64,000 nt of DNA from Alphaproteobacteria bacterium. GTDB taxonomy: Bacteria > Pseudomonadota > Alphaproteobacteria > SHVP01. A program made the translations under genes and the position numbers. Under the pieces are notes generated by a model. It did not search any database, was not told where the DNA came from, and saw only the letters and a list, made by a program, of their open reading frames with translations. The DNA is taken from assembly GCA_947473325.1 (NCBI GenBank), contig CANJEJ010000002.1, positions 29,359 to 93,358 on the forward strand, written 5' to 3'. Positions 5,323 through 43,418 of the stretch are shown piece after piece; position 1 is the first letter of the stretch, and every line of letters starts with the position of its first letter.

Positions 5323-6053
5323 CCATGGCAAACATGAAACGCAGTGCCTGCATCGTCGGTGCCGGTGGCGGCATCGGCCGCGCCACCGCCGCGGCCTTTC
5401 ACGCCGCGGGCTATGGCCCGTTGCTGCTGATGGATTTGCCGGGCGCGGATCTCGACCGCGCGGCGGCGGAAAGCGGCGCCACGCCGATTGCCATCGATCT
5501 GCGCGATCCCGCGCGCATCAAGGCGGCCTTCGACGCCGGGCGGAAGCTGACGCCGAAACTTGACGCCCTGGTGCTGGTCTCCGGCATTGTCGAGAACCAC
5601 AACGTCGCCAGCATGACGCCCGAACTCTGGGCCAACATCCTCGCCGTCAACCTGACGGGGCCGTTCACCTGCGTGCAGACGGCCGACAGCTGGCTCGCCG
5701 ATGGCGGCCGCGTCGTGCTGCTGGGTTCGCTGGCGGGTCGGCAGGCGGGCGGCGTCACCGGACCGGCCTATGCCGCGTCGAAGGGGGGCATCGAAGGGCT
5801 GACCAAGAATTTCGCGCGTTATTTCGTGCCGCGCCGCATCACCGTGAACACGGTGGCGCCGGGCCCGATCGACACGCCGATGCTCGACGCCCATCCGCCG
5901 GAACGGATGAAAGTGCTGGCCGATTCGATTCCCTTCGGCCGCCTGGGGCGGCCGGAAGAAGTGGCCGCGCTGGTGCAATTTCTCTGCTCGCCCGAAGCGG
6001 GCTATATCACGGGCTGCATCCTGCCGATCAACGGCGGGTTGCGGATGGAATAG
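5319..6053 (+). CDS. SDR-family oxidoreductase
   Basis: 244 aa. N-terminal GAGGGIGRA Rossmann motif, YxxxK (YAASK) catalytic motif. Overlaps the upstream gene by 4 nt. Confidence 0.85.
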   Translation: MTMANMKRSACIVGAGGGIGRATAAAFHAAGYGPLLLMDLPGADLDRAAAESGATPIAIDLRDPARIKAAFDAGRKLTPKLDALVLVSGIVENHNVASMTPELWANILAVNLTGPFTCVQTADSWLADGGRVVLLGSLAGRQAGGVTGPAYAASKGGIEGLTKNFARYFVPRRITVNTVAPGPIDTPMLDAHPPERMKVLADSIPFGRLGRPEEVAALVQFLCSPEAGYITGCILPINGGLRME

Positions 6054-6872: not shown

Positions 6873-7268
6873 CTAGAGGGGACGGTGATCCGTCCCCTCG
6901 CCGAAGGTGACGGCGAGCAGCGTGCCGGGTATGCGGACCTTGCCAGTGTGCCAGGTGTTGCGCGGCACGATGGTGCTTTCGCCCTCGTTCAGCGCCACTT
7001 CGCGCCGCGTCGATCCCTCGTCCAGGATCAGCGTCATCGCGCCCTTCAGCATGATCAGGATTTCCTCGCCCTTGGGATGGCGCTCCCAGTTGGCCCAGTC
7101 TTCGGCCTGGGGAAAGGCCGTCATCAGCCAGCCGCCGATCTCGCGCGTGCCCGCCATCACCTCGGGCCAGAAGGATTCCGTTACCGGAATCGCCGTGGCG
7201 GCATTGCCGTCGATGTTGATGTAGGTGGTCGTGGGATTGTAGGCGGGCGCGGGCTTGGCTTTGGCCAT
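6873..7268 (-). CDS. cupin-domain protein
   Basis: 131 aa, compact beta-barrel cupin-like sequence. Assigned by composition and size only. Confidence 0.6.
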   Translation of the reverse strand: MAKAKPAPAYNPTTTYINIDGNAATAIPVTESFWPEVMAGTREIGGWLMTAFPQAEDWANWERHPKGEEILIMLKGAMTLILDEGSTRREVALNEGESTIVPRNTWHTGKVRIPGTLLAVTFGEGTDHRPL

Positions 7269-7321
7269 ATCGACCTCCGGAATGGGTGTTCCGGTGTGAC
7301 CTAGAGCGGCCGTCTCGTCAA

Positions 7322-7409
7322 TTGGTCGCGCGAAGGCGCGCGTTCAGTTGGCCGCGCGAAGGCGCGCGTTCAGTTGGCCGCGCGAAGGCGCGCGTTCAGT
7401 TGGCCGCGT
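7322..7409. repeat. tandem direct repeat, 3 full + 1 partial copy of a 26-bp unit TTGGCCGCGCGAAGGCGCGCGTTCAG, each unit containing a CGCGCG-GAAG-CGCGCG hairpin
   Basis: Read directly. Copies at ~7322-7347, 7348-7373, 7374-7399, partial 7400-7409. The stop codon of the minus-strand gene 7396..7848 lies inside the third copy. Confidence 0.85.
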
Positions 7410-7848
7410 CGCGCAGACGGCGAAGCGCGTCACGCATCCGGGCCTGGAAGCCGGCGGCTTCCTTCTTGTCGTCGTCGGTGCGGGTGGCGAAGCCGGCCAT
7501 GCCGGCCAGGCGGGTGCCGAGGGTGTCGAACTCGTCGGCCATCTTCTTCAGCTGGATGCGGTCGGTGGCCGAGCCAGCGGCGTCGCTCAGTGTGTCCATC
7601 GCACTGATCGCGCCATTCATCAGGGACTTCACGCCGGTGAAGGTGAGCTGGCCGCGGCCGAGCAGGAGCAGCTTGGATGCAGCCTCGGCCAGGCCGGTCA
7701 GGCGGTCGCGGGCAAAGTTCAGGCCGGCGGCGGCGGCGCTCGCCTTCATGCGGCGGACGTCGGCAATGACGCCGTTCAGCGCGCGGCTCTGATCGCCAGT
7801 CGGCAGGACCGACGGCGGGGCTGTGGAAGCGCTTTGAACGGCAAGCAT
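7396..7848 (-). CDS. hypothetical Ala-rich protein (150 aa)
   Basis: More protein-like composition than the overlapping plus-strand ORFs, which are Arg/Ser-rich and would translate the tandem repeat. No recognisable domain. Confidence 0.4.
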   Translation of the reverse strand: MLAVQSASTAPPSVLPTGDQSRALNGVIADVRRMKASAAAAGLNFARDRLTGLAEAASKLLLLGRGQLTFTGVKSLMNGAISAMDTLSDAAGSATDRIQLKKMADEFDTLGTRLAGMAGFATRTDDDKKEAAGFQARMRDALRRLRDAAN

Positions 7849-7950
7849 GGCGTCAGCCTGGGCCCCGGGTGGTTAACAAAGGATGAATGACCGGCCGGGC
7901 GCGGGCCCTTAGAGTAGCGCCGCCCGAGAACAGACGCTGCCGGAACCGCT

Positions 7951-8625
7951 TTGCCCATGGCCAAGAAATCGCCGACGCCGCGCAAGCGCCTGCCCCAGGC
8001 CGAGCGCGAGGCGCAGATCATCCGCGACGCCATCCCCTTCTTCGCCAGCCGGGGCTTCAACGGCACGACGCGCGAGCTGGCCGACCATCTCGGCATCCAC
8101 CAGTCGCTGCTCTACCAGTATTTTCCCAGCAAGGACGCGCTGATCGACCGCCTGTATCGCGAGATCATCCTGGGCCGCTGGAAACGGGAATGGGAAGACT
8201 GGCTGCGCGACCGCGACACGCCGCTGAAGGACCGGCTGGAACGCTTTCTCCGCGCCTTCACCGACGGCATCTTCAGCTACGACTACATGCGCTTCTTCTT
8301 CCTGGCCTGGATGGACCGGCCCTATGCACGCGACCACTACAACAACCCGACCCAGGCGCGTGTGTTCCGCATCATCAGCAGCGAGTTGCGCCATGTTTCC
8401 GGCCTGCCCGGCCATGAAGCCTGGCCGATGAGTGTCGCCGAGCTGGAGATGCACCACGCCTTCCAGAGCAGCATCTTCTACTACGGCGTCCGCCAGTTCA
8501 TTTTCGGCGTCTCGCCGCGCATACCGCGCGATGAATTCATCACCCAGCAGGTCAAGCTTTTCCTGGCCGGTGCGCCGGAACAGCTGCGGGAAATGGCGAG
8601 GCTGCAGAAAGCGCCGATTGCCTGA
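7951..8625 (+). CDS. TetR/AcrR-family transcriptional regulator
   Basis: 224 aa. N-terminal HTH (TRELADHLGIHQSLLYQYFPSKDAL) matches the TetR signature. Confidence 0.85.
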   Translation: MPMAKKSPTPRKRLPQAEREAQIIRDAIPFFASRGFNGTTRELADHLGIHQSLLYQYFPSKDALIDRLYREIILGRWKREWEDWLRDRDTPLKDRLERFLRAFTDGIFSYDYMRFFFLAWMDRPYARDHYNNPTQARVFRIISSELRHVSGLPGHEAWPMSVAELEMHHAFQSSIFYYGVRQFIFGVSPRIPRDEFITQQVKLFLAGAPEQLREMARLQKAPIA

Positions 8626-8684
8626 GGATTGGCACGCTCTCCGGCGGTGCGCTTGACTCCCCGCGCGATTGCGGTCACCTTCAA

Positions 8685-8700
8685 CTAGTCAATTGACTAG
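8685..8700. promoter_or_regulatory. perfect 16-bp palindrome CTAGTCAATTGACTAG; candidate TetR operator, 17 nt upstream of the monooxygenase start
   Basis: Read directly. Lies between the tetR stop (8625) and the oxygenase ATG (8717). Contains a TTGACT hexamer. Confidence 0.5.
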
Positions 8701-8716
8701 GAAGATTGGGCCGACG

Positions 8717-9937
8717 ATGACGATCACGCTCGTGCAGGCGGAACATCCGACGCAACTGGGCGAGGCCGAACTGTGCGAACGCGCCCAGGCCATGGTCCCC
8801 ACGTTGCGTTCGCGCGCGCTGGCAACCGAACGCAACCGCGCCCTGCTCAACGAAACGGTGGACGATCTCTTTGCCGCCGGCCTGCTCCGCTACTTCCAGC
8901 CCAGGCGCTACGGCGGGCTTGAGCTGGACTGGCCCGTCCAGTTCAAGGTGGGTCGCATCCTCGCCCGGGGTTGCTCGGCGACGGCCTGGATCGTCTGTGT
9001 CGTCGGCGCCCATTCGTCCTACATCGCCCGCTACAACAAGGAACTGCAGGACGAGATCTGGGGCCAGGACCAGGACGTGCTCATCGCCACCGGGTCGGTG
9101 CAGAAGAGCGGCAAGGTTGTGCGCGTGCCCGGCGGCTACCGCTTGAACGGCACCTGGGGCTTTGCCAGCGGCGTCGATCATTCCAAGTGGGGGTCTGTAG
9201 CGGGCCGCGTCGAGGGCGAGAATGAGGCCATCAACTTCGTCTTCCCGCGCAAGGACTACAAGATTGCCGACACCTGGTTTGTCGCCGGCATGCGCGGCAC
9301 CGGCACCAAGGACATCGACGTCCAGGACGCCTTCGTACCGGAATATCGCACGCTGAAGCAGGAAGCCTTTGTCGGCCGCAACCCGCCGGGTTCGGCGGTG
9401 TCGAACCACTATATCCAGAAGGTGGAATTCCGGCCTTACACCGGCTCGGCGCTGCTGGGGCCGATCCTGGGCACGGCGGAAGGCGCGTTCGACGACTATC
9501 TCGCCATCACGCGCGGCCGCCGCGCCGCCATTGCGCGCAACACCATTGCCGACAATCCGCTGGTGCAGATTCGCGTCTCGGAAGCGGCGTCGGAAATCAC
9601 TGCTGCCGCGGCGCTGTGCGAACGGCATGTCGCCTTCCTGCACAAGAAGGGCCAGACGCTGGAGCCCTTCACCGAGGAAGAAAAGGTTTCCACCACGCGC
9701 GACCGCGCCTTCGCCACGAAGTTGTGCCTTGATGCCGTGGAGCGCCTGACGCGCATGATGGGTGCGCAGGGCCTGCATGACGACAACCCCGTCCAGCGCG
9801 CCTTCCGCGACCTGCACGCCATGTCGACGCAGATCGGCGTGGCCTGGGACGTCAACATGCCGGCCTATGGCAAATGGATTCTCGAACAGCCGTCGACGCC
9901 GACCGGATCCGGTGGGATCTCGGCCGCGCAGGCTTAG
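8717..9937 (+). CDS. acyl-CoA-dehydrogenase-fold flavin-dependent monooxygenase, oxygenase component (HsaA / HpaH-C2 / DszC-SfnB group)
   Basis: ORF 8669..9937 trimmed to Met 17 after an AGGAAG SD. ACAD-like fold without CoA-binding residues. Similarity to group D two-component monooxygenases. Confidence 0.8.
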   Translation: MTITLVQAEHPTQLGEAELCERAQAMVPTLRSRALATERNRALLNETVDDLFAAGLLRYFQPRRYGGLELDWPVQFKVGRILARGCSATAWIVCVVGAHSSYIARYNKELQDEIWGQDQDVLIATGSVQKSGKVVRVPGGYRLNGTWGFASGVDHSKWGSVAGRVEGENEAINFVFPRKDYKIADTWFVAGMRGTGTKDIDVQDAFVPEYRTLKQEAFVGRNPPGSAVSNHYIQKVEFRPYTGSALLGPILGTAEGAFDDYLAITRGRRAAIARNTIADNPLVQIRVSEAASEITAAAALCERHVAFLHKKGQTLEPFTEEEKVSTTRDRAFATKLCLDAVERLTRMMGAQGLHDDNPVQRAFRDLHAMSTQIGVAWDVNMPAYGKWILEQPSTPTGSGGISAAQA

Positions 9938-10006
9938 GACGTACGGTGTCCAGGACATCAAGCAGGGAGGCGCCGTACAGGAACTTCTAGACGGGGAGGA
10001 CAATCA

Positions 10007-11536
10007 ATGAGTTTGAACACATCGCGTCTGTCTGCCTACGCCGCGGCTGGCCTCGTGCTTGCCGGGGTGGTTGCCGTTTCCGGCACGGCCACCGCCCAGT
10101 CGGCGGCCAACACGCTGCGCATCGCCAACACCGTGGCCGCCCCCAACCGCGGCGAACCCACGGCTGGCCTCTCCAAGCAGTACCTGGCGACCTGGGAGCT
10201 GATGCACGAAGCCCTGACCAGCGTCGGCGGAACGGGCCAGGCCGAACCGCGCCTTGGCGCCTCGTGGCGCAACAAGGACCCGCAGACCTGGGAATTCAAG
10301 CTCGCGCCCAACCTGAAGTTCCATAGCGGCGAGCCCTTCAACGCCGATTCCGTCGTCTTCATGGTCGGCTACCTGAACTCCGACGAGGGCAAGGGCACGC
10401 CGCTCTACGGCAGCCTGCGGCATGTGGTCGGCGCGACCAAGGTCGATGACATGACGGTGGAGATCAAGACTGCGGGGCCGAGTCCGATCCTGCCGTCGGA
10501 AATCGCCGCCCTGCGCTTCATGGACCCCAAGGTGTGGCGCGACCTCGGCAAGCAGGGCTACGGCAACAAGCCGTCGGGCCTCGGCCCCTGGCGTGTCACC
10601 AACTGGGACGAAACCAAGGTGGAGCTGACACGCTTCGACGGTTCCCTGCGCAAGGCCAAGATCGACAACGTGCTCATGTATTTCATGCCCGAGTCGCCAA
10701 CGCGGGTGCAGGCCTTCCAGTCGAACGCAGCCGACATCGCGCTCTACATGTCGTCGGACGCCCGCGGCCTGATCGAAGGGGCAGGCGGCCGTCTGGCGAA
10801 TAACCCGTCGCCCTCGGTGATCGTGTCGATCTTCAACCAGTCCAAGGGCGGCATCACGCTCGACAAGCGCGTGCGCCAGGCCCTCAACTATGCGGTGGAC
10901 AAGAGCTATACCGAGACCCTGCTAGGCGGCAACACGATCGCCGCCAGCCAGCCGGCGACCCGCTCGGTCAACGGCTATCAGGCCGACATCAAGCCCTATG
11001 CCTACGACCCCGCCAAGGCCAAGGCGCTGCTGACCGAGGCCGGCTTCGGCGGCGGCCTCAAGATACTGGCCGAGGTGCTCAACACTGAGGCGGACAACAA
11101 CAACGTCTACCAGCATGTCGTCAACAACCTGCAGAAGGTGGGTATCGACATGGAGTTGCGCATCATGACCACGCCGGACCTCAACGCCCGCATCACCGGC
11201 GGCAAGGTGCCGGAAGGTCCGATGATGCATTTCAACTATGGCTCGGCCCCGTCGATCGACATGATGCGGCCGGTCAATACCTATCACTCGTGCAAGTTCC
11301 CGCGCGGCTGGACCTGCTTCCAGGAAATCGAACCGACGATCGAGGCCGTCAACTCCGAGTTCGACCCGAAGAAGCGGGCCGAAGGCCTGCGCAAGATCTC
11401 GCAGTATTACCACGAGGCCGCGCCGGCACTCTGGCTCTATGACGCGTTCGAGCTCGACGCCATCGCCAAGCGCGTGAAGAACTACAAGAACGAAAACTGG
11501 CGGCTCAACTGGGCTGACATCGAACTCCAGGGCTAG
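10007..11536 (+). CDS. ABC-transporter substrate-binding protein, family 5 (peptide/nickel/opine type), periplasmic
   Basis: 509 aa, N-terminal signal peptide (AVSGTATAQSA), family 5 SBP architecture. No permease or ATPase genes adjacent. Confidence 0.8.
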   Translation: MSLNTSRLSAYAAAGLVLAGVVAVSGTATAQSAANTLRIANTVAAPNRGEPTAGLSKQYLATWELMHEALTSVGGTGQAEPRLGASWRNKDPQTWEFKLAPNLKFHSGEPFNADSVVFMVGYLNSDEGKGTPLYGSLRHVVGATKVDDMTVEIKTAGPSPILPSEIAALRFMDPKVWRDLGKQGYGNKPSGLGPWRVTNWDETKVELTRFDGSLRKAKIDNVLMYFMPESPTRVQAFQSNAADIALYMSSDARGLIEGAGGRLANNPSPSVIVSIFNQSKGGITLDKRVRQALNYAVDKSYTETLLGGNTIAASQPATRSVNGYQADIKPYAYDPAKAKALLTEAGFGGGLKILAEVLNTEADNNNVYQHVVNNLQKVGIDMELRIMTTPDLNARITGGKVPEGPMMHFNYGSAPSIDMMRPVNTYHSCKFPRGWTCFQEIEPTIEAVNSEFDPKKRAEGLRKISQYYHEAAPALWLYDAFELDAIAKRVKNYKNENWRLNWADIELQG

Positions 11537-11593
11537 CGGCGTTCCGGTCGCGCAGGATCGGAGCCTCCCTCCCGCGTCCAAGGCAGACCGCAC

Positions 11594-11626
11594 CGGCGGG
11601 CCCGCAAGGCCCGCCGGTTTCTTTGT
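11594..11626 (+). terminator. rho-independent terminator after the SBP gene
   Basis: CCGGCGGGCC-CGCAA-GGCCCGCCGG stem-loop followed by TTTCTTTG. Confidence 0.6.
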
Positions 11627-11739
11627 GGGAACAAGGCATGCGTTTGGCGTCGAAGGCGCCGTGAGCCGCCGACACAACGTGTTGCGGCGAGCCAGGCATG
11701 GCCTATTGTTGGGGCCTCGCTGGCGAATGGAATTGGTCC

Positions 11740-12363
11740 ATGTTCTACGAACCTGAAAAGGGGCACGGGTTGCCCCATGATCCGATCAATGCGCTTGTCA
11801 TCCCGCGGCCCGTCGGCTGGATCTCGACCGTTGACGTGGATGGCGTAGTCAATCTGGCGCCGTTCGCGCTCTTCAACATCGTCGCCTATGAGCCGCCCCA
11901 TGTGATGTTCGCGCCCACGGGAAACCGAGGCGCGCCCTTCAAGGACAGCTTCAACAATGTCGCGGCAACCGGTGAATTCGTCGTGAACATGGCGACGTGG
12001 GCATTGAAGGACAAGGTCTGGCTCACCTCGACACCGGCGCCTCCCCATGTCGATGAAATGGAACTCGCAGGGCTGACCCCCGTTCCCTCAAGGCTGGTGC
12101 GGCCGCCACGTGTGAAGGAAAGCCCGGTACATCTTGAGTGCCGCCACGTGCAGACCGTTCGTCTGCCGCATACGGATCCCGGTTCGGCCAATCACATTGT
12201 GATCGGCAAGGTGGTGGGGGTTCATATCGACGATGTCGTCCTGAAGAACGGCATGGTGGACTATGCCTTGCTCACGCCGATGGCCCGGCTGGGCTACACC
12301 GATTACACCCGGATCACGGAAGTGTTCACCAAGCCATTTCCCAAGTGGCCGCCCACGGCCTAG
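11740..12363 (+). CDS. NAD(P)H-flavin reductase (HpaC/HsaB/DszD-type, flavin-reductase-like domain)
   Basis: ORF 11698..12363 trimmed to Met 15. Flavin reductase domain motifs (VVNLAPFALFN, SxxPP). Confidence 0.8.
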   Translation: MFYEPEKGHGLPHDPINALVIPRPVGWISTVDVDGVVNLAPFALFNIVAYEPPHVMFAPTGNRGAPFKDSFNNVAATGEFVVNMATWALKDKVWLTSTPAPPHVDEMELAGLTPVPSRLVRPPRVKESPVHLECRHVQTVRLPHTDPGSANHIVIGKVVGVHIDDVVLKNGMVDYALLTPMARLGYTDYTRITEVFTKPFPKWPPTA

Positions 12364-12402
12364 CCGCAAGACCGCCGCCGCGGGTTCCGCCGATCGCCGC
12401 CG

Positions 12403-14730
12403 CTAATTCTTTCCCTTGGCGCTCCGCAGCCGGTGCACGATCGGCGGCGGCTCGAATGCGCGCACCGGCGGCACGACGCCGTCGAAGCGCTCGATGTCGA
12501 CCAGGCAGCTATGCGCGCTCGGGCCCTGCGCCAGCTTCGACGAGCCGCTGTCGCGCGTCAGCACGTTGGGGTTGCCATGGGTGTCGAGCCCGCCGGGCTC
12601 GACCGGGTCATACCAGGCGCCGGTCGGCAGCTGGACGCAGCCCTGCATGACGCCGTCCGAAATCTGCGCACCGGCGAGCGAGGCGCCGCGGTCGTTGAAC
12701 AGGCGCACGATGTCGCCGTCCTTGATGCCCTTCTTTGCGGCGTCAGCGGGGTGGATCAACACCGGCTCGCGGTCCCTGATCTTGTTGCTGCGGGAATAGC
12801 CGCCATTGTCATACTGGCTGTGCAGCCGCGTCTTCGGCTGGTTGGACACGAGGTGGAAGGGGAACTTCTTCGCCAGCGGCGCACCCAGCCATTCCACCGG
12901 TTCCATCCAGGTTGCCTGCGGCGGGCAGTTGTCATAGCCGAAGCCGGCGATCGTCTCGGAATACAGCTCGAGCTTGCCCGACGGCGTCTTCAAGGGATTG
13001 CCCCTGGGGTCTTCCACGAAGGCCTGCATCAGCACTCGCGGCCGTTCCGGCGTCGGGAAGCGCAACTCGCCCGCGGCACGGAAGGTTTCGTAGTCGGGGA
13101 TTTCGGCGTTCTCACTTGCCGCCATCTGGCGCAGCTGGTTGTACATGTAGCGCAGCCAGCCGTCCTCATCGCGATTCTCAGTGTAATCCTCGCGGATGCC
13201 GAAGCGGTCCGACAGTTCGCTGAAGATGTCGAAGTCGCTCTTCGACTGGCCAAAGGGCTCCATCGCCTTGTGCATCGGGAAGAAATAGTCGTCGTTGAAG
13301 GCGGTGCCGATGTCGTTGCGCTCCAGCGGCGTCGTCACCGGCAGGACGATGTCGGCATGGCGCGCATTCGCGTTCCACCACGGCTCGTGCACGACAATGG
13401 TTTCCGGCTCCTGCCAGGCGCGCACCAGGCGGTTCAGGTCCTGGTGGTGGTGGAACGGATTGCCACCGACCCAATAGACCAGGCGCGTGTCGTTGAAGGT
13501 GATCTTCTGGCCGTTGTAGTCGATCACCTGGCCCGGGTTCAGCAGCATGTCGGCGATGCGTGCGACCGGGATGAAGTCCTTGAAGGTGCTGGTGCCGGAG
13601 CCGAACAGCGGCCCGCCGATGTTGCGCGCCGGATTGCCGATGTTGCTGATCGCGCCATAGCCCATGCCGAAGCCGCCGCCCGGCAGGCCGATCTGGCCGA
13701 CGATCGCGGCGAGCGTGGTCAGCGTCCAGAAGGCCATCTCGCCATGGTCCTGGCGCTGCAGCGACCAGCTGGCGGTGACGATGGTGCGGGTTGCTGCTGC
13801 ATCGCGGGCAAGGCGGCGGATGACGTCGGCGGGCAGGCCGGATTTCTCCGCCGCCCATTCCGCGGTCTTCGGCGTCCCGTCCGTCTCGCCCATCAGATAG
13901 GCGCGGACGCGGTCGAAGCCGACGGTGCAGCGGTCAAGGAAGTCCTGGTTGTGCAGGCCCTCCGACACCAGCGTGTGGGCCATGCCCATCATCACGGCGA
14001 CGTCTGAGTTGGGACGCGGGGTCAGCCACTCGGCGTCAAGGAAGTCGGCGGCGTCTTCGCGCACCGGGCCGAGATAGATGAAGCGGGCACCGTTCTCCTT
14101 CGCCTTACGCAACCAGTCCTTGACGATGTGGCGGCCGGCGCCGCCGCCATCCACCTGCGCGTTCTTCAGCGGGATGCCGCCGAACATGATGAAGAGCTTG
14201 GTGTTGTCCGCCAGGACCGGCCAGGAGGTGAAGCCGTTATAGAGCTCGGTCCACGAGCCGGCGACGTGCTGCATCACCACATCGCCCGCCGCCAGGCTGT
14301 AGCTGTTGACCGACTTCACATTGCCGCCCAGCAGGTTCAGGAACTTCCTCAAATGGGGCTGCGCCAGGTGGAACTTGCCTGCACTGGCCCAGCCATAGGA
14401 CCCGGCATAGATCGCGCCGGGGCCGAAGCCGTCGCGCACGCGCCGCACTTCTCCGGCCACGAGATCGAGCGCGCGCTCCCACGACACCGGAACGAAGGGT
14501 TCGGCGCCCCGGCGGTTGTCATGCTTGCGCGGGCCGTTTTCCAGCCAGCCCAGCCGCACCATCGGCTGGGCGATCCGCACCTGATCCTTCAGCGCCTGCG
14601 GCATGCCGGCGCCGATCGACGAGGGATCGGCATCGGCCTTGATGGGTGTCATCTTCACCACGTCGCCGTCGCGCACTTCGGCGTCATAGGCACCCCAATG
14701 GGTGTGCGTGCGCAGGGTCTTGGTGGTCAT
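12403..14730 (-). CDS. molybdopterin (bis-MGD) oxidoreductase, cytoplasmic biotin-sulfoxide/TMAO/DMSO reductase family (BisC-like)
   Basis: 775 aa. No Tat signal and no N-terminal Cys cluster. N-terminal HWGAY...GSYGW motifs very similar to E. coli BisC. Confidence 0.85.
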   Translation of the reverse strand: MTTKTLRTHTHWGAYDAEVRDGDVVKMTPIKADADPSSIGAGMPQALKDQVRIAQPMVRLGWLENGPRKHDNRRGAEPFVPVSWERALDLVAGEVRRVRDGFGPGAIYAGSYGWASAGKFHLAQPHLRKFLNLLGGNVKSVNSYSLAAGDVVMQHVAGSWTELYNGFTSWPVLADNTKLFIMFGGIPLKNAQVDGGGAGRHIVKDWLRKAKENGARFIYLGPVREDAADFLDAEWLTPRPNSDVAVMMGMAHTLVSEGLHNQDFLDRCTVGFDRVRAYLMGETDGTPKTAEWAAEKSGLPADVIRRLARDAAATRTIVTASWSLQRQDHGEMAFWTLTTLAAIVGQIGLPGGGFGMGYGAISNIGNPARNIGGPLFGSGTSTFKDFIPVARIADMLLNPGQVIDYNGQKITFNDTRLVYWVGGNPFHHHQDLNRLVRAWQEPETIVVHEPWWNANARHADIVLPVTTPLERNDIGTAFNDDYFFPMHKAMEPFGQSKSDFDIFSELSDRFGIREDYTENRDEDGWLRYMYNQLRQMAASENAEIPDYETFRAAGELRFPTPERPRVLMQAFVEDPRGNPLKTPSGKLELYSETIAGFGYDNCPPQATWMEPVEWLGAPLAKKFPFHLVSNQPKTRLHSQYDNGGYSRSNKIRDREPVLIHPADAAKKGIKDGDIVRLFNDRGASLAGAQISDGVMQGCVQLPTGAWYDPVEPGGLDTHGNPNVLTRDSGSSKLAQGPSAHSCLVDIERFDGVVPPVRAFEPPPIVHRLRSAKGKN

Positions 14731-14808
14731 GGCGGATATCCCGGGGAGAAGAAGGGCACAATCACAGCTGTATAATGCCCTTCCCAGGTGACCCGGGGGA
14801 AGGGCCGG

Positions 14809-15987
14809 TCAGCGATATGGGCTCGGCAAGTCGATCCCGAAGGCATGCCGGCCGAAGGGGAGCGCATTCTGGTCCCAGGCCATCACGCCATGCGAGGCCA
14901 GCGCGTTCAGGTCGCGGAACTTGAGCTGGATCGGGTTGTCTTCCCTCTGTCCCGTCACGCCCATGGCCATCACCAGCCGGTCCGTCGCGCGCCGGCACAG
15001 CAGCGCGGCATAGGCGACGTTGCGCTTGTAGCGAAGCTGAACATCCTGCGGGATGGGCTCGTCCGCGCGGGCCCGGCGATTCACGTCGGCAAGGTCGGCG
15101 CGCAGCAGCAGGTTGGCGCATTCGATCTCGGCGCCCGATTCCGCCACGCGGAGCTGCAGGTTGGCATGTTCGCCCAGTTGCTTGTCGGACAGGATGCCAA
15201 GCCGGCCGCCGGTCTGGCGCACATAAAGGTCAAGCGCGCTCTCCGCCACGCCGGTGACCGGACCGACGACGGTGAAAGGCCCCACGCCCATCATCGGCAG
15301 GCGATAGATCGGGTTTGTGTTCGCGGTGGTCCCGGGTGCCTTGCCGCTGTTGGCGGCAGGAAAGTCGAGCTCGCGCCAGCCCGGCACGAAGGCATCGCGC
15401 ACGATGACGTCGTTGGTCCCCGTGCCGCGCAGGCCGGTTGAGCGCCAGGTGTCGACGATTTCGAAATCGGCGCGCGGCACCAGCACCGTGGTGCGGCGGG
15501 GCGGCCCGTTGTCCTGCGCGACCAGCGCCAGCAGGATCACCCAGTCGGCCGAATCGATGCCGCTGGCGAAATGCCAGTGGCCCGACAGGCGATAGCCGTT
15601 GCGCTCTGGTACCGCCCGCGCCGACTCATGGGCATAGGCGGAGCAGACGATGGCGTCGGGGTCCTTCGCCCAGATGTCGTCCTGCGCCTCGGCCGGGAAC
15701 AGGCCGCAGACCCAGTGATGGCTGGCGACCACCGTGGCGATCCAGGCCGACGACGCACAGGCGCGGCCAATCTCGCCCGCGACGAAGACCTGAGCGCCAT
15801 AGTCGAGCTCATAGCCGCCATGGCGCTTCGGCTGGTTGACCTTGAACACGCCGGCCTTCTGGAAGTCGCGGATCGTCGCGGCCGGAATGCGGCGGCTCTC
15901 CTGCGTCTCGGCTATGCGTTGGGTAAGCGCGGGCAGCAGCGCGCGGGTGCGGTCGAGGACGGTGTCGAGGGTCGGCAGGGCGGTCAT
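14809..15987 (-). CDS. acyl-CoA-dehydrogenase-fold flavin-dependent monooxygenase, oxygenase component (paralog of 8717..9937)
   Basis: ORF 14809..16752 trimmed to Met 256 (MTALPTLDTVLDRT...). The 255-aa N-terminal extension is Arg-rich shadow sequence overlapping the divergent gene. Confidence 0.8.
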   Translation of the reverse strand: MTALPTLDTVLDRTRALLPALTQRIAETQESRRIPAATIRDFQKAGVFKVNQPKRHGGYELDYGAQVFVAGEIGRACASSAWIATVVASHHWVCGLFPAEAQDDIWAKDPDAIVCSAYAHESARAVPERNGYRLSGHWHFASGIDSADWVILLALVAQDNGPPRRTTVLVPRADFEIVDTWRSTGLRGTGTNDVIVRDAFVPGWRELDFPAANSGKAPGTTANTNPIYRLPMMGVGPFTVVGPVTGVAESALDLYVRQTGGRLGILSDKQLGEHANLQLRVAESGAEIECANLLLRADLADVNRRARADEPIPQDVQLRYKRNVAYAALLCRRATDRLVMAMGVTGQREDNPIQLKFRDLNALASHGVMAWDQNALPFGRHAFGIDLPSPYR

Positions 15988-16047
15988 ATCGCAAGGCTGG
16001 ACAGTTGGGCCTCGTCGCGCAAGGATTTTCCGGCAACGGAGGAACCC

Positions 16048-16866
16048 ATGACCGGACTCGTCAGCGTGCTCGACACTGCCGCCATGCCCTGGGCGCCGGA
16101 ACCGGCGATCCGCGGCATGCTGGTGAAAAAGCTGCATGTCGACGAGGCGACGGGCGGCACCGTGCAGATCCATTTCGCGCCGCCGGATTACGGCATCCAT
16201 GTGATGTTCCGGCGCCCGAACCGGCACTATCACCGCACCGCCTGGGAACGCTCGCTTTGCCTCTATGGCGACTTTCCCCACTGGGAATGGCGCGACGGCG
16301 CCGACCTGGAAGGCGAGATGATCGTTTTCCGGCGAGGCACCTTCATGGACCGTCCGCCACTGACCCTGCATGGGCTGAAGGCCGAACCTCGCAGCACCGT
16401 CGGCGCGCAGTTGCTGGAATGGAGCACCGGCGGCGGCACGGGCCTCGACGACCCCGCTGCGAAGCAGGAAACCTTCGACGTCCCCTTTGACGACAGCGCC
16501 CGTGGCATCAATCTGCCCTTTACCAGCCCGCGCATCTTCCCGGCGGATACTCTCCCCTGGCAGGCGGCGCGGCCCGGCTGGAAATGGAAGCCGCTGGCGG
16601 ATGATGCGCCGCGCGCGCCGGCCTGCGGGTTCCTGCATGTCGCGGCTGACACAGCGGGGGCAGGTGAGATCCTGACAACCCGCGGACCCTTCGCCTGGTT
16701 TTTCGTCTTTGCCGGTGACTTGCGCCTGCAGGTGGACGGCCGCCCGCTTCATTTGCGCGAAGGTGGCTTCGTGCGCTGGGAAGCCCCGGCCGATCTCCGG
16801 CTGGCCCAGGGTTTGCTGTCGGACACGGGCGCGACGCTGCTCTGCGTCGGCACGCAGCTCATCTAG
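16048..16866 (+). CDS. bicupin-domain protein of unknown function (paralog of 33766..34593)
   Basis: Internal Met 160 of ORF 15571..16866, preceded by a GGAGGA SD. Shares DTAAMPW, LEWSTGGGTGL and LLCVG motifs with 33766..34593. Confidence 0.6.
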   Translation: MTGLVSVLDTAAMPWAPEPAIRGMLVKKLHVDEATGGTVQIHFAPPDYGIHVMFRRPNRHYHRTAWERSLCLYGDFPHWEWRDGADLEGEMIVFRRGTFMDRPPLTLHGLKAEPRSTVGAQLLEWSTGGGTGLDDPAAKQETFDVPFDDSARGINLPFTSPRIFPADTLPWQAARPGWKWKPLADDAPRAPACGFLHVAADTAGAGEILTTRGPFAWFFVFAGDLRLQVDGRPLHLREGGFVRWEAPADLRLAQGLLSDTGATLLCVGTQLI

Positions 16867-17494
16867 TCAGCGCGGCATCCGCCATCAGGCGCAGGCCCAG
16901 CAGTGCCATCACGCTGCCGGCGCCGCGGTCGATCCATCGCTTCGCGCGGCCATAGGCGGCGCGCAGATGTGGACGGGAAAAGCCGAGCGCCAGCAGCGTG
17001 TACCAGCCAAGTTCCAACAGGAACAACGCAGCGGGCAGGGCGACGGCGAGTTCCAGCGGCACGGTCGCGGGCAGCAGCGCGACGAAGACGCTGGCATAGA
17101 CCACGGCTGTCTTCGGATTGCTCATCTGGACGGCGAAGGCCAGGGTAAAGGCGCGCAGTGTGGATGCACTGCGCGGCTCGCTCTCCGGCACCGCCACCAT
17201 CGGCTCTTGTGCCCCGCGCCACAGGCGCCAGCCGAGATAGAGAAGATAGGCGCCGCCGCCGATCTTAAAGGCGAGATACGCCCAGGGCGCCTGGGCCAGC
17301 AGTGCCGTCAGGCCCGCCATGGCCAACACGGCGAACAGGAAGCCGCCGAGGCCCATGCCGAGCGCGGCGGCAAGGCCCGCGCGCGCGCCAGCTTCGGCGG
17401 ACAGGCGCGCGACGAACAACACGCTCGGCCCCGGGCTCACCATCCCCACGGCAATGGCGCCCAGGATGCTGAAGAAGGCGAGCGTTGCGTCCAT
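16859..17494 (-). CDS. LysE/RhtB-family amino-acid exporter
   Basis: 211 aa, six predicted TM helices, LysE-type N-terminal motif (SPGPS). Confidence 0.85.
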   Translation of the reverse strand: MDATLAFFSILGAIAVGMVSPGPSVLFVARLSAEAGARAGLAAALGMGLGGFLFAVLAMAGLTALLAQAPWAYLAFKIGGGAYLLYLGWRLWRGAQEPMVAVPESEPRSASTLRAFTLAFAVQMSNPKTAVVYASVFVALLPATVPLELAVALPAALFLLELGWYTLLALGFSRPHLRAAYGRAKRWIDRGAGSVMALLGLRLMADAALTR

Positions 17495-17498
17495 CGCG

Positions 17499-18473
17499 TC
17501 AGGGAATCGTCACCACGACACGGCCGACGGCCCGCCGTTCGCGCAGTTCCAGCATGGCATCCTTGAACTGCGCCAGCGGGTAACGCGCCGAGACATGCGG
17601 CTTCAGTTTGCCGGCAGCAAGCCAGCCCAGCAGCTCCTGCACGCTCGCATCCAGCTTGTCGCGCGCGTGGTCGCGGAAATAGCGCAGGGACGAGCCCATG
17701 GCCGAGCGGTGCTTCACCAGAAGCCGATTGGCGGGGATCTGCGGGATGCCGCCGACAAAGCCGAAGACGAGATAGCGGCCGCCCCAGCCGAGCGACGAGA
17801 GTGCCGGGTCGAACAGGTCGCCGCCAATTGGATCGAAGACCACGTCGGCGCCCTTGCCGGCGGTGATCTCCTGCACCTTGTCCTTCCAGGCGGGATCGCT
17901 GTAGTTCACCAGCGCATCGGCGCCATGGGCTTTGGCGACGGCAAGCTTGTCGTCACTGCTCGCGCCGGCAATGACACGCGCGCCCATTGCCTTGCCGATC
18001 TCGACCGATGTCAGCCCGGTGCCGCCCGAGGCGCCGAGCACCAGCAGTGTCTCGCCCGGTTCCAGCCGCCCCTGCCAGCGGATCGCGACATGCGATGAGA
18101 CGTAGCCGACATAGAAAGAGCCGGCGATGTCGAAGGGCATGCTGTCGGGAATGACATGGGTGTCGAGCGCGGGCGCCAGCGCATGCTCGGCGAAGCCACC
18201 CCAGTCGAGCTTGGCCATCACGCGCTGGCCAGGCTTCACGCGGGTGACGCCGGAACCCACCGCAGCCACCACGCCCGCGCCTTCCAGCCCCGGTGCGAAG
18301 GGGAAGGGGGGCTTCGTCTGGTATTCGCCGCGCGTCATGACGATGTCGGCGAAATTCACCGACGCCGCCTTCATGTCGATCAGCACCTGGCCCGGCCCCG
18401 GGGTGGGCGCGGGCAGATCGCCCAGGGTGAGGCTTTCAACCTCACCCCAGGCGCGTGCGATCGCCGATCGCAC
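17499..18473 (-). CDS. NADPH:quinone oxidoreductase (MDR/zinc-ADH superfamily)
   Basis: 324 aa. GASGGTG nucleotide-binding motif. GTG start per ORF track. Confidence 0.85.
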   Translation of the reverse strand: MRSAIARAWGEVESLTLGDLPAPTPGPGQVLIDMKAASVNFADIVMTRGEYQTKPPFPFAPGLEGAGVVAAVGSGVTRVKPGQRVMAKLDWGGFAEHALAPALDTHVIPDSMPFDIAGSFYVGYVSSHVAIRWQGRLEPGETLLVLGASGGTGLTSVEIGKAMGARVIAGASSDDKLAVAKAHGADALVNYSDPAWKDKVQEITAGKGADVVFDPIGGDLFDPALSSLGWGGRYLVFGFVGGIPQIPANRLLVKHRSAMGSSLRYFRDHARDKLDASVQELLGWLAAGKLKPHVSARYPLAQFKDAMLELRERRAVGRVVVTIP

Positions 18474-18476: not shown

Positions 18477-20081
18477 TCAGCGCAGGCCGAGCGAACCGGG
18501 GTTCACGAGGCGCTGCGGATCGACCAGATCCTTGACCTGCTGCAGCAGCTCGCGCGTTTCCGGCTCGCGGCCCTCGAGATACGGATACATCTTGCCGATC
18601 TGCAGGTGCACGCAGCCCTGTTCCATGAACAGCCGGGCCAGGCCCTTGCGGATCTCCAGCATGGCGTTGCGCGCTTTCAGGTTTTCCGGGAACTGCTTCA
18701 GCTTGGCGTAGTGCGCCTTTTCGATCATCCGGGTGTGCAGCGAATAGTGTGAATCCGGCCAGAAGAAGGTCGGCTCGAACAGGATCGCGTTGGTGCTGAT
18801 GACGGTCATCAGGTAACCCCACTCGATCTTGTTCTCCTCGACGAGCTGCTTGCGCTCGTTGAAGAAGGCATCGATGGCGCGCAGCAGCGTCTTTGCCCGC
18901 GAATGCGGCATGATGACGTGGATCGGCACCCAGCGCTCACCCTCGGGCCCGAGCAGCCGGTTGACCGGCGCGAAGGGCATGGCGCGGACAAGCTTCGGCA
19001 TCGACGGCTCGATCTCGGTGCCGTTGAACTGCGCGACGATGGCCTTCACACGCTTGAGCGCGCTGTCGGCCACTGCCTGGTCGCGGCCCTCGACGATGAC
19101 GTGCATCGCCCAGTTGACGTCATCGGCGAAACGGCGCCCGGCAACGGCGATCTTCGCCGCGTCCTTCAGGCCGCCGAGCAGCGTCTTGCCCGACTTCACC
19201 ACGCTGCCCAGCGCCTTGAAGTCCTTGGCCAGGCCTTCGAACTTCATGCGCATCGACAGGAGATAGGGGTCGAAGCCGAAGCACTCCGAAGCAAGACCCT
19301 CACGGCTGATCTGCGACATGGCCGAGGTCATGCTCACATCGTCGGGGAAGTCGTAGGAGCCGAACAAGGCAACCTCCGGCGTCTTCACCAGGCGCAAGGA
19401 CGCCCGCACCTTGAAGCCCATGGCGCCGGTGTCGCCGAGGAAGATGCCGGCAAGGTCGGGGCCATAGGTGCGGAAGAAGGGCGACGGGTTGTGCGGCGTC
19501 GCCCACGAGCCGGTCTTGACGAGGCGCCCGTCGGCGAGCGCGATCTCAAGGCTCAGCACCGATTCGACCGCGGTGCCATGGGTAGAGGAGCCGAAGAAAA
19601 TGCTGTTCTGGCTCAGCACGCCGCCGACCGTGGCATACATGCCCGAGAAGGGTCCGAAATAGGGTGTGCGGACGCCCTTTTCCTTCAGCGCTTCGTAGAG
19701 CTGCTTCCACGTTACGCCGCATTCGACGACGACATACATGTCCTCGGTGTTGATCTCGAGGATCCTGTTCAGCCGGCGCGTGTCGACCATCACCGTGTCG
19801 GTGCGCTCGGGCGCATAACCGGCGGTATAGGACATGCCGCCGCCGCGCGCGACCACGGCCATGCCGGCGCGCGTCGCCTCGCGCACCACGGCGGCCACTT
19901 CCTCGGGCGTGCCGGGTGCTACCACCAGTTCGGCGGGTTCGGGCTTGTAGAACACGTCGGTCGAGAAGAAGGCACGTTCCTCGGCGTCGGTGATGACGTG
20001 GTCCTTGCCGACGATGCCTTCGAGAGCCTGGATCAGGGGGCGGCGATTGTCGCCCGCAGCGGGTGCGGCCGTGGGGGTCAT
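18477..20081 (-). CDS. FAD-linked oxidase (PCMH-type FAD-binding, GlcD/vanillyl-alcohol-oxidase family)
   Basis: 534 aa. N-terminal FAD-binding domain (GGGMSYTAG) and C-terminal oxidase domain. Confidence 0.85.
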   Translation of the reverse strand: MTPTAAPAAGDNRRPLIQALEGIVGKDHVITDAEERAFFSTDVFYKPEPAELVVAPGTPEEVAAVVREATRAGMAVVARGGGMSYTAGYAPERTDTVMVDTRRLNRILEINTEDMYVVVECGVTWKQLYEALKEKGVRTPYFGPFSGMYATVGGVLSQNSIFFGSSTHGTAVESVLSLEIALADGRLVKTGSWATPHNPSPFFRTYGPDLAGIFLGDTGAMGFKVRASLRLVKTPEVALFGSYDFPDDVSMTSAMSQISREGLASECFGFDPYLLSMRMKFEGLAKDFKALGSVVKSGKTLLGGLKDAAKIAVAGRRFADDVNWAMHVIVEGRDQAVADSALKRVKAIVAQFNGTEIEPSMPKLVRAMPFAPVNRLLGPEGERWVPIHVIMPHSRAKTLLRAIDAFFNERKQLVEENKIEWGYLMTVISTNAILFEPTFFWPDSHYSLHTRMIEKAHYAKLKQFPENLKARNAMLEIRKGLARLFMEQGCVHLQIGKMYPYLEGREPETRELLQQVKDLVDPQRLVNPGSLGLR

Positions 20082-35412: not shown

Positions 35413-35482
35413 TGGCTCTCCCTTGGTTCGCGTTAGCCAGTCAGACTAGACTGGCGCTCCTCCCCTTGCGCCCGAGGTTGCC

Positions 35483-43417: not shown

Positions 43418-43418
43418 C

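Follow-up and report, generated by a model that had tools for sequence, protein, structure and literature searches.

The genes gathered around two flavin-dependent oxygenases in the window (the whole 64-kb stretch of DNA that was analysed) belong to two independent units that are neighbours by accident of insertion, and do not form the single TetR-controlled set proposed in a preliminary description of the region. Unit A (7910–12413, plus strand) is a strain-variable cassette comprising tetR, a palindrome, the oxygenase gene oxy1, an SBP_bac_5 gene, a terminator and a flavin reductase gene. Unit B (minus strand) is the older, conserved part, in which the gene for a second oxygenase, Oxy2, is followed by that for a predicted cytoplasmic BisC/DorA-type molybdoenzyme (hereafter, the reductase). 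As the best explanation we tentatively propose, at a likelihood somewhat short of an even chance, that the two units are functionally separate and that unit B processes one phenolic or heteroaromatic S-/N-oxide in sequential steps.

Layout of the region

Gene calls made independently on the source contig (ENA metagenome scaffold MEHR18-2_SAMN08331103 scaffold_678), along with ORF, Pfam and NCBIfam scans, recovered the genes and sites where the preliminary description had placed them. The features referred to below are:

7957..8625, plus strand: TetR-family regulator, 222 aa, first gene of the cassette (PF00440, E = 9e-11)
8685..8700, no strand assigned: perfect 16-bp palindrome, candidate TetR operator, 17 nt before the Oxy1 ATG
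8717..9937, plus strand: Oxy1, predicted oxygenase component of a group D two-component flavin monooxygenase, 406 aa (ACAD-fold, PF08028)
10007..11536, plus strand: orphan periplasmic SBP_bac_5 solute-binding protein (SBP), 509 aa (PF00496, E = 5e-60)
11592..11628, plus strand: intrinsic-terminator-like hairpin after the SBP gene (stem, loop, T-rich tail)
11698 (or 11740)..12363, plus strand: flavin reductase, last cassette gene (PF01613, E = 2e-21)
7910..12413, no strand assigned: span of the strain-variable cassette, measured against the 83%-identical locus L082 (blastn)
12403..14730, minus strand: predicted cytoplasmic BisC/DorA-type (type III DMSO-reductase family) molybdopterin S-/N-oxide reductase, 775 aa (TIGR00509, DorA alignment)
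14731..14808, minus strand: Oxy2–reductase spacer, 78 nt (from the sequence)
14809..15987, minus strand: Oxy2, predicted HsaA-like oxygenase component of a group D flavin monooxygenase, 392 aa (NCBIfam scores)
16048..16866, plus strand: 272-aa bicupin from a small family without annotation, encoded divergently from Oxy2; accessory partner (fold model)
17499..18473, minus strand: PIG3-type NADPH quinone oxidoreductase (QOR), 324 aa (TIGR02824, 215 bits)

Thus, oxy1 and oxy2 lie on opposite strands and in separate units. A promoter scan of the region found no consensus sites, so the transcription units are ones that we infer.

A BisC/DorA-type molybdoenzyme predicted to be cytoplasmic

The reductase has the Pfam architecture Molybdopterin_N, Molybdopterin and Molydop_binding. 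Its residue 8 aligns with residue 10 of mature DorA, the alignment with E. coli BisC likewise starting at residue 9 of the latter, and its residues 1–60 hold neither a twin-arginine motif nor a cysteine. It therefore is signal-less and free of an Fe-S motif, just as previously described, and is predicted to be cytoplasmic like BisC, with no Tat signal. The closest solved structure is that of the periplasmic DMSO reductase DorA from Rhodobacter (1eu1; 735 bits), whose Mo ligand Ser147 and residues Tyr114 and Trp116 align to Ser145, Tyr112 and Trp114 of the reductase. Judged by this alignment the active site is complete and of the DorA/BisC type, and S-/N-oxide reductase activity is predicted. 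Unlike DorA, the protein has no Tat signal peptide, and no genes for a DorC-type cytochrome or a DorD chaperone lie nearby.

Like E. coli BisC and the biotin sulfoxide reductase of Rhodobacter, the reductase is predicted to be a signal-less, single-subunit enzyme of bis-MGD architecture without an Fe-S cluster. It is 40% identical to, and colinear over its full length with, E. coli BisC, and its score against TIGR00509 (bisC_fam) is 955.8 bits, marginally under the trusted cutoff of 1017.55 (TorA, 721 bits), which argues that it is not a simple BisC orthologue. A further difference is that E. coli bisC stands alone, whereas the reductase gene is linked to those for an oxygenase and the QOR. 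A relative of 66% identity is named S/N-oxide reductase by NCBI. Scanning positions 7000–17500 against Rfam revealed neither a Moco riboswitch nor any other leader ahead of the reductase gene.

The Oxy2–reductase linkage is conserved in one clade

Oxy2 is encoded immediately upstream of the reductase on the same strand, with 78 nt from the stop of the former to the start of the latter, in agreement with the preliminary description. The conservation of this gene pair, suggested there as a check, was borne out by comparison with related loci. In a neighbour-joining tree of 84 reductase sequences (built without support values), linkage of the two genes was seen in 11 out of 11 loci of one monophyletic clade, mostly across gaps of 26–86 nt (five lineages). 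The window, P0002, L082, L083/84, L001–3, L088 and L085–87 all have Oxy2 upstream of the reductase. Reductase identity across these loci goes from 86% down to 59%, and the Oxy2 orthologues encoded upstream of the reductase in L001–3 and L082–88 are 55–91% identical. The Oxy2–bisC-like pair is thus a genuinely conserved linkage in one clade of uncultured Alphaproteobacteria. The flanks have been reshuffled, the window and L085/L088 having only the QOR, bicupin, SBP, Oxy2 and reductase genes in common. Ancestrally, the arrangement appears to have been a tight QOR–Oxy2–reductase operon like that of L083/84, where the three genes are packed with gaps of 26–31 nt. The relatives of the locus come from freshwater or soil-type metagenomes.

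In three lineages, different genes have come to lie between Oxy2 and the reductase: P0002 has an AAA_33 gene there, while in both L085 and L088 the intervening genes are unrelated ones on the opposite strand. Co-transcription of the pair is therefore dispensable. Outside the clade, an ACAD-fold oxygenase was encoded within about 10 kb in 0 of 69 reductase loci; the pair arose once only, which leaves room for its retention by descent. The two enzymes might accordingly share no pathway, with the BisC-like protein serving general repair or salvage, as E. coli BisC does, through the reduction of biotin sulfoxide, free methionine sulfoxide or small molecules that have been oxidised, and with the gene order inherited within the clade. 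We regard this as possible, if on the unlikely side. In its favour, the association is limited to a single clade and was split by three independent insertions, the active site is generically DorA/BisC-like, an MsrA gene lies near the pair in L088, and reductases of the sister clade are encoded alone or beside xanthine-dehydrogenase-family genes, the only association to emerge when recurrent neighbours were clustered over 60+ reductase loci. E. coli BisC, moreover, is a cytoplasmic biotin sulfoxide reductase induced by H2O2 (PMC12096835). Against it, the adjacency of Oxy2 and reductase outlasts divergence to 59% identity while nearly all other neighbours change, the close packing in L083/84 extends to the QOR gene, and both the bisC_fam score and the distance from E. 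coli BisC speak against simple orthology.

The 78-nt spacer carries a hairpin-forming GGGAAGGGC / GCCCTTC element that is kept in L082. With a fold z-score of −1.58 the spacer is not significantly structured, and it gave no terminator consensus and no Rfam match; on account of this z-score we do not claim a terminator or attenuator at this site. Literature on BisC with flavin monooxygenase clusters, or with HsaA, yielded nothing relevant. Taken singly, the parts of the locus are ordinary; what is undescribed is solely that Oxy2 and the reductase occur as a pair.

A quinone oxidoreductase often, and a bicupin sometimes, accompanies the pair

L001/2 and L083/84 encode QOR orthologues (67–68% identical) directly ahead of Oxy2, and L085 encodes one close by. 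Unit B has, in certain lineages, been joined by an SBP_bac_5 gene and a gene for a novel bicupin: two bicupin copies adjoin SBP–Oxy2–reductase in L085 and L088, and bicupin genes are missing from L082, L083 and L001. The bicupin sequence falls under the Pfam cupin thresholds, and its family comprises only 21 clusters as found here, in none of which a Pfam domain rises above threshold. Because a search of PDB sequences returned zero matches, the fold was predicted. The resulting AF2 model (pLDDT 92.5) had quercetin 2,3-dioxygenases as its best Foldseek matches (E about 1e-11, TM about 0.6), and in it the protein consists of two cupin barrels with a dioxygenase-like fold and a conserved predicted metal site. 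The latter draws on an invariant RHYH..ER motif and H108, with H60, H62, E67 and H108 as the putative His/His/Glu/His ligands.

The bicupin was rejected as a core partner, its distant homologues being found in other contexts, unlinked to Oxy2 or the reductase. We also dropped a DMSP/DMSOP lyase-type reading of the cupin and the DMSO-reductase-like enzyme: the bicupin's fold matches are of a generic kind, the QOR does not resemble AcuI (E = 1e-8; cutoff 440 bits), and the origin of the relatives given above further counters it.

In the sequential processing that we favour for unit B, the Mo enzyme would deoxygenate the S-/N-oxide group of a phenolic or heteroaromatic compound, and Oxy2 would then hydroxylate the ring with flavin that has been reduced by an enzyme encoded elsewhere (in this locus, next door). 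The QOR would hold the hydroquinone/quinone product in its reduced state and, where a bicupin is present, this enzyme would cleave the ring. Quite unlikely, in our estimate, is that QOR, Oxy2 and reductase (with the bicupin as an accessory) constitute a dedicated, hitherto undescribed cytoplasmic pathway of uncultured Alphaproteobacteria with Oxy2 and the molybdoenzyme acting on the same molecule, either as a one-heteroatom couple or as the entry into aromatic S-/N-oxide catabolism. Heteroaromatic N-oxide antibiotics are example substrates for a pathway of this kind.

Both oxygenases fall with aromatic hydroxylases

Oxy1 and Oxy2, which are 34% identical to each other, both match the ACAD-fold domains (PF02771/PF08028). 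Against the NCBIfam profiles for HsaA, C2-HpaH, SfnB and DszC, Oxy1 scored 289, 222, 62 and 49 bits and Oxy2 320, 201, 44 and 26 bits, the curated cutoffs being 450, 650, 431 and 850 bits, respectively. Both proteins thus stay below the equivalog cutoffs for HsaA and C2-HpaH, and we assign them, by these profile scores, to the HsaA/C2-HpaH clade as orthologues of neither enzyme. Their PDB matches (HsaA, C2, 2or0 and XiaF) rank in agreement with the profiles. The SfnB and DszC scores, in contrast, are far under the respective cutoffs as well as far under the HsaA/C2 scores, and the DszC/SfnB-type chemistry considered in the preliminary description is not upheld. That description had named two findings that would jointly speak against it, oxygenases in an aromatic-hydroxylase clade and a pair unlinked in related genomes; the profile scores do point to such a clade, whereas the pair is linked throughout.

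For Oxy1 and Oxy2 alike, HsaA came out as the best match among HMMs and among PDB entries. The resemblance to HsaAB, the 3-HSA hydroxylase of steroid catabolism in Mycobacterium/Rhodococcus, lies in an ACAD-fold oxygenase that uses reduced flavin and in a PF01613-type reductase; the differences, besides the sub-cutoff scores, are that hsaC, hsaD and kst steroid-degradation genes are absent from the surroundings and that Oxy2 has a Mo reductase as its partner. The p-hydroxyphenylacetate 3-hydroxylase C1–C2 of Acinetobacter baumannii and the resorcinol hydroxylase GraA/GraD belong to the same clade of two-component phenol hydroxylases. Residues H120, S146, S171 and H396 of C2-HpaH, which we take to be the catalytic and phenol-binding ones, correspond to H90, S116, S142 and H366 in Oxy2 and are kept in Oxy2 orthologues. 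Oxy1 retains only the equivalents of H120 and S171, with Thr in place of S146 and Gln in place of H396, and neither oxygenase, at 201–222 bits, comes near the C2-HpaH cutoff. As for GraA/GraD, a tblastn search of plasmids with Oxy2 found best homologues of about 35–38% identity and none above 38%, one of them annotated graA.

Rv3094c of M. tuberculosis is an ACAD-fold two-component S-oxygenase that sulfoxidises ethionamide (PMC9904262). It matches Oxy1 and Oxy2 at about 1e-27 to 1e-28 (about 100 bits) and is closer to them than DszC. The Rv3093c–Rv3094c–Rv3095 locus resembles the present genes in combining a repressor, an ACAD-fold flavin-dependent monooxygenase and a flavin reductase, and shows that relatives of the Oxy1/Oxy2 clade can oxygenate sulfur (PMC9904262). 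It differs in that the match is one of about 100 bits only and the regulator is of another family; a Mo reductase partner is not mentioned in the portion of PMC9904262 used. Together with the conserved pairing of an oxygenase and an S-/N-oxide reductase, this relationship could suit a redox couple, as raised in the preliminary description, in which Oxy2 would add oxygen to S or N of a substrate and the Mo enzyme would reduce the oxide formed at that atom, giving a buffer for detoxification or an oxidation switch that can be reversed. We hold this to be very unlikely: the two oxygenases group with the C-hydroxylating HsaA and C2, Oxy2 retains the phenol-binding His/Ser residues of C2-HpaH, an oxygenation/deoxygenation cycle in the cytoplasm would waste NAD(P)H, and the conserved QOR and dioxygenase-like bicupin suit ring chemistry better.

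Still further down ranks an assimilation of organosulfur compounds or DMSO/DMS, with DszC/SfnB/MsuC-like oxygenases acting on sulfides, sulfoxides or sulfinates and a Mo enzyme feeding them by reducing DMSO or an alkyl sulfoxide. The DorA-like active site including the Tyr114 equivalent, the adjacent flavin reductase and the weak SfnB and DszC matches would fit, but these matches amount to 26–62 bits, and ssu, tau and sfn-regulator (sulfonate/sulfur-starvation) genes were not seen anywhere in the window, making this highly improbable.

Unit A is a strain-variable cassette

When L082 was compared with the window by blastn, homology ended at 7909 and restarted at 12414, with merely 18 bp between these points in L082. 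The genes in between were found at the same site only in an 86% relative and are missing from all other loci of the clade. Because neither L082 nor any more distant relative has the cassette, it represents a strain-variable insertion. A repeat search at its boundaries detected no IS-like, direct or flanking repeats, and the long inverted repeats in the region reflect Oxy1/Oxy2 paralogy only. A metagenome scan for Oxy1 relatives returned matches of at most 34% identity and nothing on cassette conservation. The cassette as a widespread unit was discarded, as Oxy1 homologues of 59–61% identity have other neighbours (WelO5-like, M24 peptidase, MFS, OYE-type reductases).

A TetR repressor with an adjacent operator is suggested by two features that are both present, an N-terminal TetR HTH and a palindrome between regulator and target gene; no NCBIfam equivalog was matched by the regulator. 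The perfect 16-bp palindrome reported earlier, CTAGTCAATTGACTAG, was confirmed and occurs once in the window even when 3 mismatches are allowed (matches in 0 of 100 shuffles), its 12-nt core being likewise single at 2 mismatches. The repressor probably binds this unique candidate operator upstream of Oxy1, and probably controls an Oxy1–SBP transcript ending at the terminator at 11592–11628. The hairpin of the latter (11592–11618) has an 11-bp stem with 10 G-C pairs and a 5-nt loop, is followed by TTTCTTTGT and was seen in MFE and centroid folds alike. It is the sole terminator-like site in 7700–16300 and, being strong, separates the SBP gene from that of the flavin reductase.

By its domain the SBP belongs to cluster C, family 5, of the ABC-transporter SBPs. 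By inspection, it has a Sec-type signal peptide, and its PDB matches are at a generic Dpp/Nik/AccA level only. Opp/Dpp-type permease or ATPase genes were not found across the 64-kb window, so the SBP is an orphan within it, as had been noted. The flavin reductase, of 221 aa (or 207 aa with a start at 11740), is encoded 1.8 kb downstream of Oxy1, behind the terminator, and its PDB matches include NtaB (3bpk) as well as the nitroreductase NbaA (4z85). It would supply reduced flavin, and unit A would be a standard inducible two-component phenol-type hydroxylase module. Near the Oxy2–reductase pair of relatives, no flavin reductase gene was found.

That one repressor governs Oxy1, SBP, flavin reductase, Oxy2 and reductase together is hardly credible: physical proximity and the fact that the cassette holds the only flavin reductase near Oxy2 would favour it, but no copy of the palindrome precedes the flavin reductase, Oxy2, reductase or tetR genes, relatives keep Oxy2–reductase without the cassette, the two units run on opposite strands, and the cassette itself contains a terminator.

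Discussion

The apparent two-oxygenase set is a product of cassette insertion. All of the components are ordinary members of well-known families, and the pair is a modest lead, not a discovery. To our knowledge, cytoplasmic BisC-type molybdoenzymes are known essentially as enzymes for the repair or salvage of biotin sulfoxide or methionine sulfoxide. That the reductase is tied, across a whole clade, to an aromatic hydroxylase and a quinone reductase hints at its use in the catabolism or detoxification of aromatic S-/N-oxides. If this is true, a BisC-type enzyme would gain a catabolic role instead of the known repair role, and the physiological scope of the family would widen.

Gene content of the interval

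Gene calls were those stored for the ENA metagenome scaffold containing the window (MEHR18-2_SAMN08331103 scaffold_678, 156.7 kb), and they were concordant with our own ORF, Pfam and NCBIfam scans. G+C content of the window is ~65%, and the closest genomes with related genes are MAGs of uncultured Alphaproteobacteria. ORF, domain and motif checks recovered every physical feature of the preliminary description, which had proposed a single TetR-controlled oxygenase set together with a BisC-like reductase. The genes concerned are:

7957-8625, + strand, TetR regulator
8717-9937, + strand, ACAD-fold flavin oxygenase 1 (Oxy1)
10007-11536, + strand, SBP_bac_5 solute-binding protein (SBP)
11698 or 11740 (start) to 12363, + strand, flavin reductase (Flavin_Reduct)
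12403-14730, - strand, molybdopterin oxidoreductase, 775 aa (the reductase)
14809-15987, - strand, ACAD-fold flavin oxygenase 2 (Oxy2)
16048-16866, + strand, 272-aa protein without a Pfam domain (the bicupin)
16859-17494, - strand, LysE
17499-18473, - strand, PIG3-type quinone oxidoreductase (QOR)
18477-20081, - strand, FAD_binding_4 oxidase

Oxy2 and the reductase form a conserved pair

In the window, Oxy2 ends 78 nt before the start of the reductase on the same strand. Of the 80 loci recovered by scanning genomes with the reductase, an Oxy2 orthologue was present only in the closest three (L001-3; 63-64% reductase identity to the window copy), in each case directly upstream of the reductase and on the same strand. 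Among metagenomic contexts of homologues, Oxy2 stood upstream of the reductase in P0002 (86%), L082 (83%), L083/84 (66%), L088 (61%) and L085-87 (59%), the Oxy2 orthologues of these loci showing 55-91% identity; P0016/L089 (58%) had no Oxy2 orthologue upstream of the reductase. In a neighbor-joining tree of 84 reductases, computed without support values, the Oxy2-linked enzymes constituted a single clade. The linkage originally noted for the window is thus conserved across one reductase clade. QOR, Oxy2 and reductase are tightly packed in L083/84 (gaps of ~31 and 26 nt), and the Oxy2-reductase gap measures at most 47 nt in L001/2 and 86 nt in L082.

The only neighbors common to the window and L085/L088 are QOR, the 272-aa protein, SBP_bac_5, Oxy2 and the reductase; in L085/L088 the 272-aa protein occurs in two copies (46-50% identical), and the SBP_bac_5 protein (30% identical) is encoded directly upstream of Oxy2. 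That the pair is kept despite turnover of its flanks argues for selection on the cluster. Against this, the association arose only once, the surroundings of the other 69 reductase loci hold nothing similar, sister-clade reductases either stand alone or have xanthine-dehydrogenase-family genes beside them, and the Oxy2/reductase junction has received three different insertions: P0002 has an AAA_33 kinase-like gene, and L085 (junction at 5436-6000) and L088 (junction at 5224-6000) have unrelated genes on the opposite strand with coding-like GC3. Of these two opposite-strand inserts, one codes for a 113-aa coiled-coil-like protein and the other for 229 aa.

The Oxy2-reductase spacers of the window (14731-14808) and L082 (7915-8000) both keep CCCTTCCCC ... 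GGGAAGG(G)CATTATACA ... TTGTGCCCTTC, elements from which either of two hairpins, each excluding the other, could form around an AT-rich core; the spacer fold was not statistically distinct from shuffles and had no Rfam match. A second indel hot spot flanks the conserved pair at window 15976-17495, where L082 has an AbiEii toxin and a PhdYeFM-type antitoxin instead of the bicupin and LysE genes.

The TetR-Oxy1 genes are a variable cassette

The tetR-Oxy1-SBP-flavin reductase genes are a separate, strain-variable cassette, and the interval comprises two units, not one set. In blastn comparison with L082, homology extended up to window position 7909 and resumed at 12414, with 18 bp between in L082; the 4.5-kb block coincides exactly with this indel, at whose boundaries no repeats were found. 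Genes for a 150-aa hypothetical and a Cupin_2 protein, which directly follow the reductase gene in L082, both lie left of tetR in the window. L001-3 and L083-88 lack all four cassette genes in the 6-10 kb around the reductase, making a gain in the window's lineage the parsimonious explanation. The 86% relative (sample ERZ1426826) carries tetR-Oxy1 at the equivalent site, with an alpha/beta hydrolase in place of the flavin reductase, and Oxy1 homologues at 59-61% identity reside in unrelated contexts.

A perfect palindrome between tetR and Oxy1, as first described, is indeed present (CTAGTCAATTGACTAG, 8685-8700, 17 nt ahead of the Oxy1 ATG). It is the single match in 64 kb with up to three mismatches allowed (0/100 shuffles match), and its 12-nt core, with two mismatches allowed, had no second occurrence in the window. 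An intrinsic terminator is predicted after the SBP gene (11592-11628; 11-bp stem with 10 G-C pairs, 5-nt loop, tail TTTCTTTGT), the sole terminator-like site detected in 7700-16300. Given the single palindrome and this terminator, any TetR control would be expected over Oxy1-SBP only; it is doubtful for the flavin reductase and would not be expected to extend to Oxy2 or the reductase. With the cassette being an indel, its palindrome occurring once and a terminator inside it, a single TetR regulon over the whole interval is poorly supported.

The SBP bears a Sec-type signal peptide (by inspection), and its description as an orphan holds: the 64-kb window contains no Opp/Dpp-type permease or ATPase genes. 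PDB relatives of the flavin reductase (11740-12363, +) include NtaB and the 2-nitrobenzoate nitroreductase NbaA (4z85, E 8e-19), and a nitro- or hydroxylamino-reducing role is conceivable from this similarity.

Oxy1 and Oxy2 are HsaA/C2-HpaH-type oxygenases

Profile scores place Oxy1 and Oxy2 in the HsaA/C2-HpaH branch, not the DszC/SfnB branch, of the group D flavin monooxygenases. With NCBIfam models, they scored 289 and 320 bits (HsaA), 222 and 201 bits (C2-HpaH), 62 and 44 bits (SfnB), and 49 and 26 bits (DszC), respectively, which leaves the organosulfur chemistry proposed earlier poorly supported. Both fall under the equivalog cutoffs and are therefore clade members, not orthologues of HsaA or C2. 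Their top solved relatives in a PDB search were HsaA (2rfq, 3afe), the Rhodococcus hydroxylase 2or0, XiaF and C2. Oxy1 and Oxy2 share only 34% identity and are not recent duplicates.

In a HMMER alignment, H120, S146, S171 and H396 of C2 (2jbr), which we take to be the phenol-binding and catalytic residues, correspond to Oxy2 H90, S116, S142 and H366. All Oxy2 orthologues keep these four positions; Thr and Gln replace the S146 and H396 equivalents in Oxy1 and its relatives. The ACAD-fold enzyme Rv3094c, which sulfoxidises ethionamide (PMC9904262), matches both oxygenases at ~1e-27, better than DszC does. Clade placement thus makes C-hydroxylation the default, with heteroatom oxygenation a less likely alternative.

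The reductase and the bicupin

The reductase contains Molybdopterin_N, Molybdopterin and Molydop_binding domains (Pfam) and scored 955.8 bits against TIGR00509 bisC_fam (cutoff 1017.55) and 721 bits against TorA. Mature Rhodobacter DorA (1eu1) matched at 735 bits, reductase residue 8 aligning with DorA residue 10 and DorA Ser147, Tyr114 and Trp116 with Ser145, Tyr112 and Trp114; E. coli BisC is colinear from residue 5/9 (40% identity). The N-terminus has neither a twin-arginine motif nor a cysteine, indicating a cytoplasmic BisC/DorA-type enzyme without an Fe-S cluster. N-terminus, domains and alignments thereby bear out the initial assignment to a signal-less BisC/TorA family lacking an Fe-S motif. 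Homologues without Oxy2 in sister clades (L005-L013, L024, L025, L043, L060, L089) often have xanthine-dehydrogenase/aldehyde-oxidase-family genes (large, FAD and 2Fe-2S subunits) within a few kb, co-locating two molybdoenzyme types.

For the 272-aa protein, the search recovered a small family (21 clusters found), all labelled hypothetical and none with a Pfam domain above threshold, whose members all share RHYH..ER and a His further on (H60, H62, E67, H108). An AlphaFold model from the family alignment (pLDDT 92.5, pTM 0.91) had quercetin 2,3-dioxygenases and other bicupins as top PDB folds (E ~1e-11, TM ~0.6). Missing from L082, L083 and L001, and with distant homologues in other contexts, the bicupin is accessory. 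A second family copy (33766-34593, -; 29% identical to the 16048-16866 protein, E 1e-32), with RHHH..RE in place of the RHYH..ER metal motif, adjoins an SDR (34669-35412) and a methyltransferase (35483-36625).

Three SAM-methyltransferase genes (~375 aa) share one Pfam signature (22394-23515, +; 23560-24702, -; 35483-36625, +), and an L082 counterpart of one matches window 35481-35902 at 69% DNA identity. L092, a locus with a distant bicupin homologue, has a similar methyltransferase, a Cupin_7/DUF4437 protein and a QOR nearby; this methyltransferase/cupin/QOR co-location may point to a more loosely linked gene set that recurs. Elsewhere in the window, 40560-48112 (+) encodes a LuxR-type autoinducer-binding regulator (40560-41288), a pentapeptide-repeat protein (41779-42900), a penicillin-amidase-family protein (44285-46567) and a GH3-family adenylating enzyme (46574-48112). 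AHL acylases belong to the penicillin-amidase family, and these genes form a possible quorum-sensing or quorum-quenching neighborhood. An amine oxidase, DUF1365 and cyclopropane-fatty-acyl-phospholipid-synthase-like (CMAS) trio follows at 48914-52390 (+).

Proposed functions of the two units

The cassette would represent a conventional inducible two-component hydroxylase system, with TetR at its operator controlling Oxy1-SBP and the flavin reductase supplied downstream. For the Oxy2-reductase unit, we favor a scheme in which the enzymes act in turn on one phenolic or heteroaromatic S-/N-oxide: the Mo enzyme would remove oxygen from the S-/N-oxide, Oxy2 would hydroxylate the ring, QOR would hold the quinone/hydroquinone product reduced and the bicupin, where present, would cleave the ring. 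Of this, only family membership, the conserved active sites and the gene linkage are observed directly; reaction order, substrate and co-transcription are inferred.

The main rival to this sequential scheme is that the reductase serves, like BisC in E. coli (PMC12096835), as a general MetSO/biotin-sulfoxide repair enzyme that has stayed beside Oxy2 by descent. The earlier suggestion of a redox couple, Oxy2 oxygenating and the reductase deoxygenating the same heteroatom, is possible but disfavored by the aromatic-hydroxylase signature of Oxy2.

Individually, the proteins are new members of known families: HsaA/C2/GraA-type hydroxylases (Oxy1, Oxy2), BisC/DorA-type reductases, NtaB-type flavin reductases, cluster-C SBPs and TetR regulators. 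We found no literature description of a conserved pair of a group D oxygenase and a cytoplasmic Dor/BisC-type reductase. The Oxy2-reductase pairing is an undescribed arrangement of parts that all come from well-known families, confined to a small uncultured clade.
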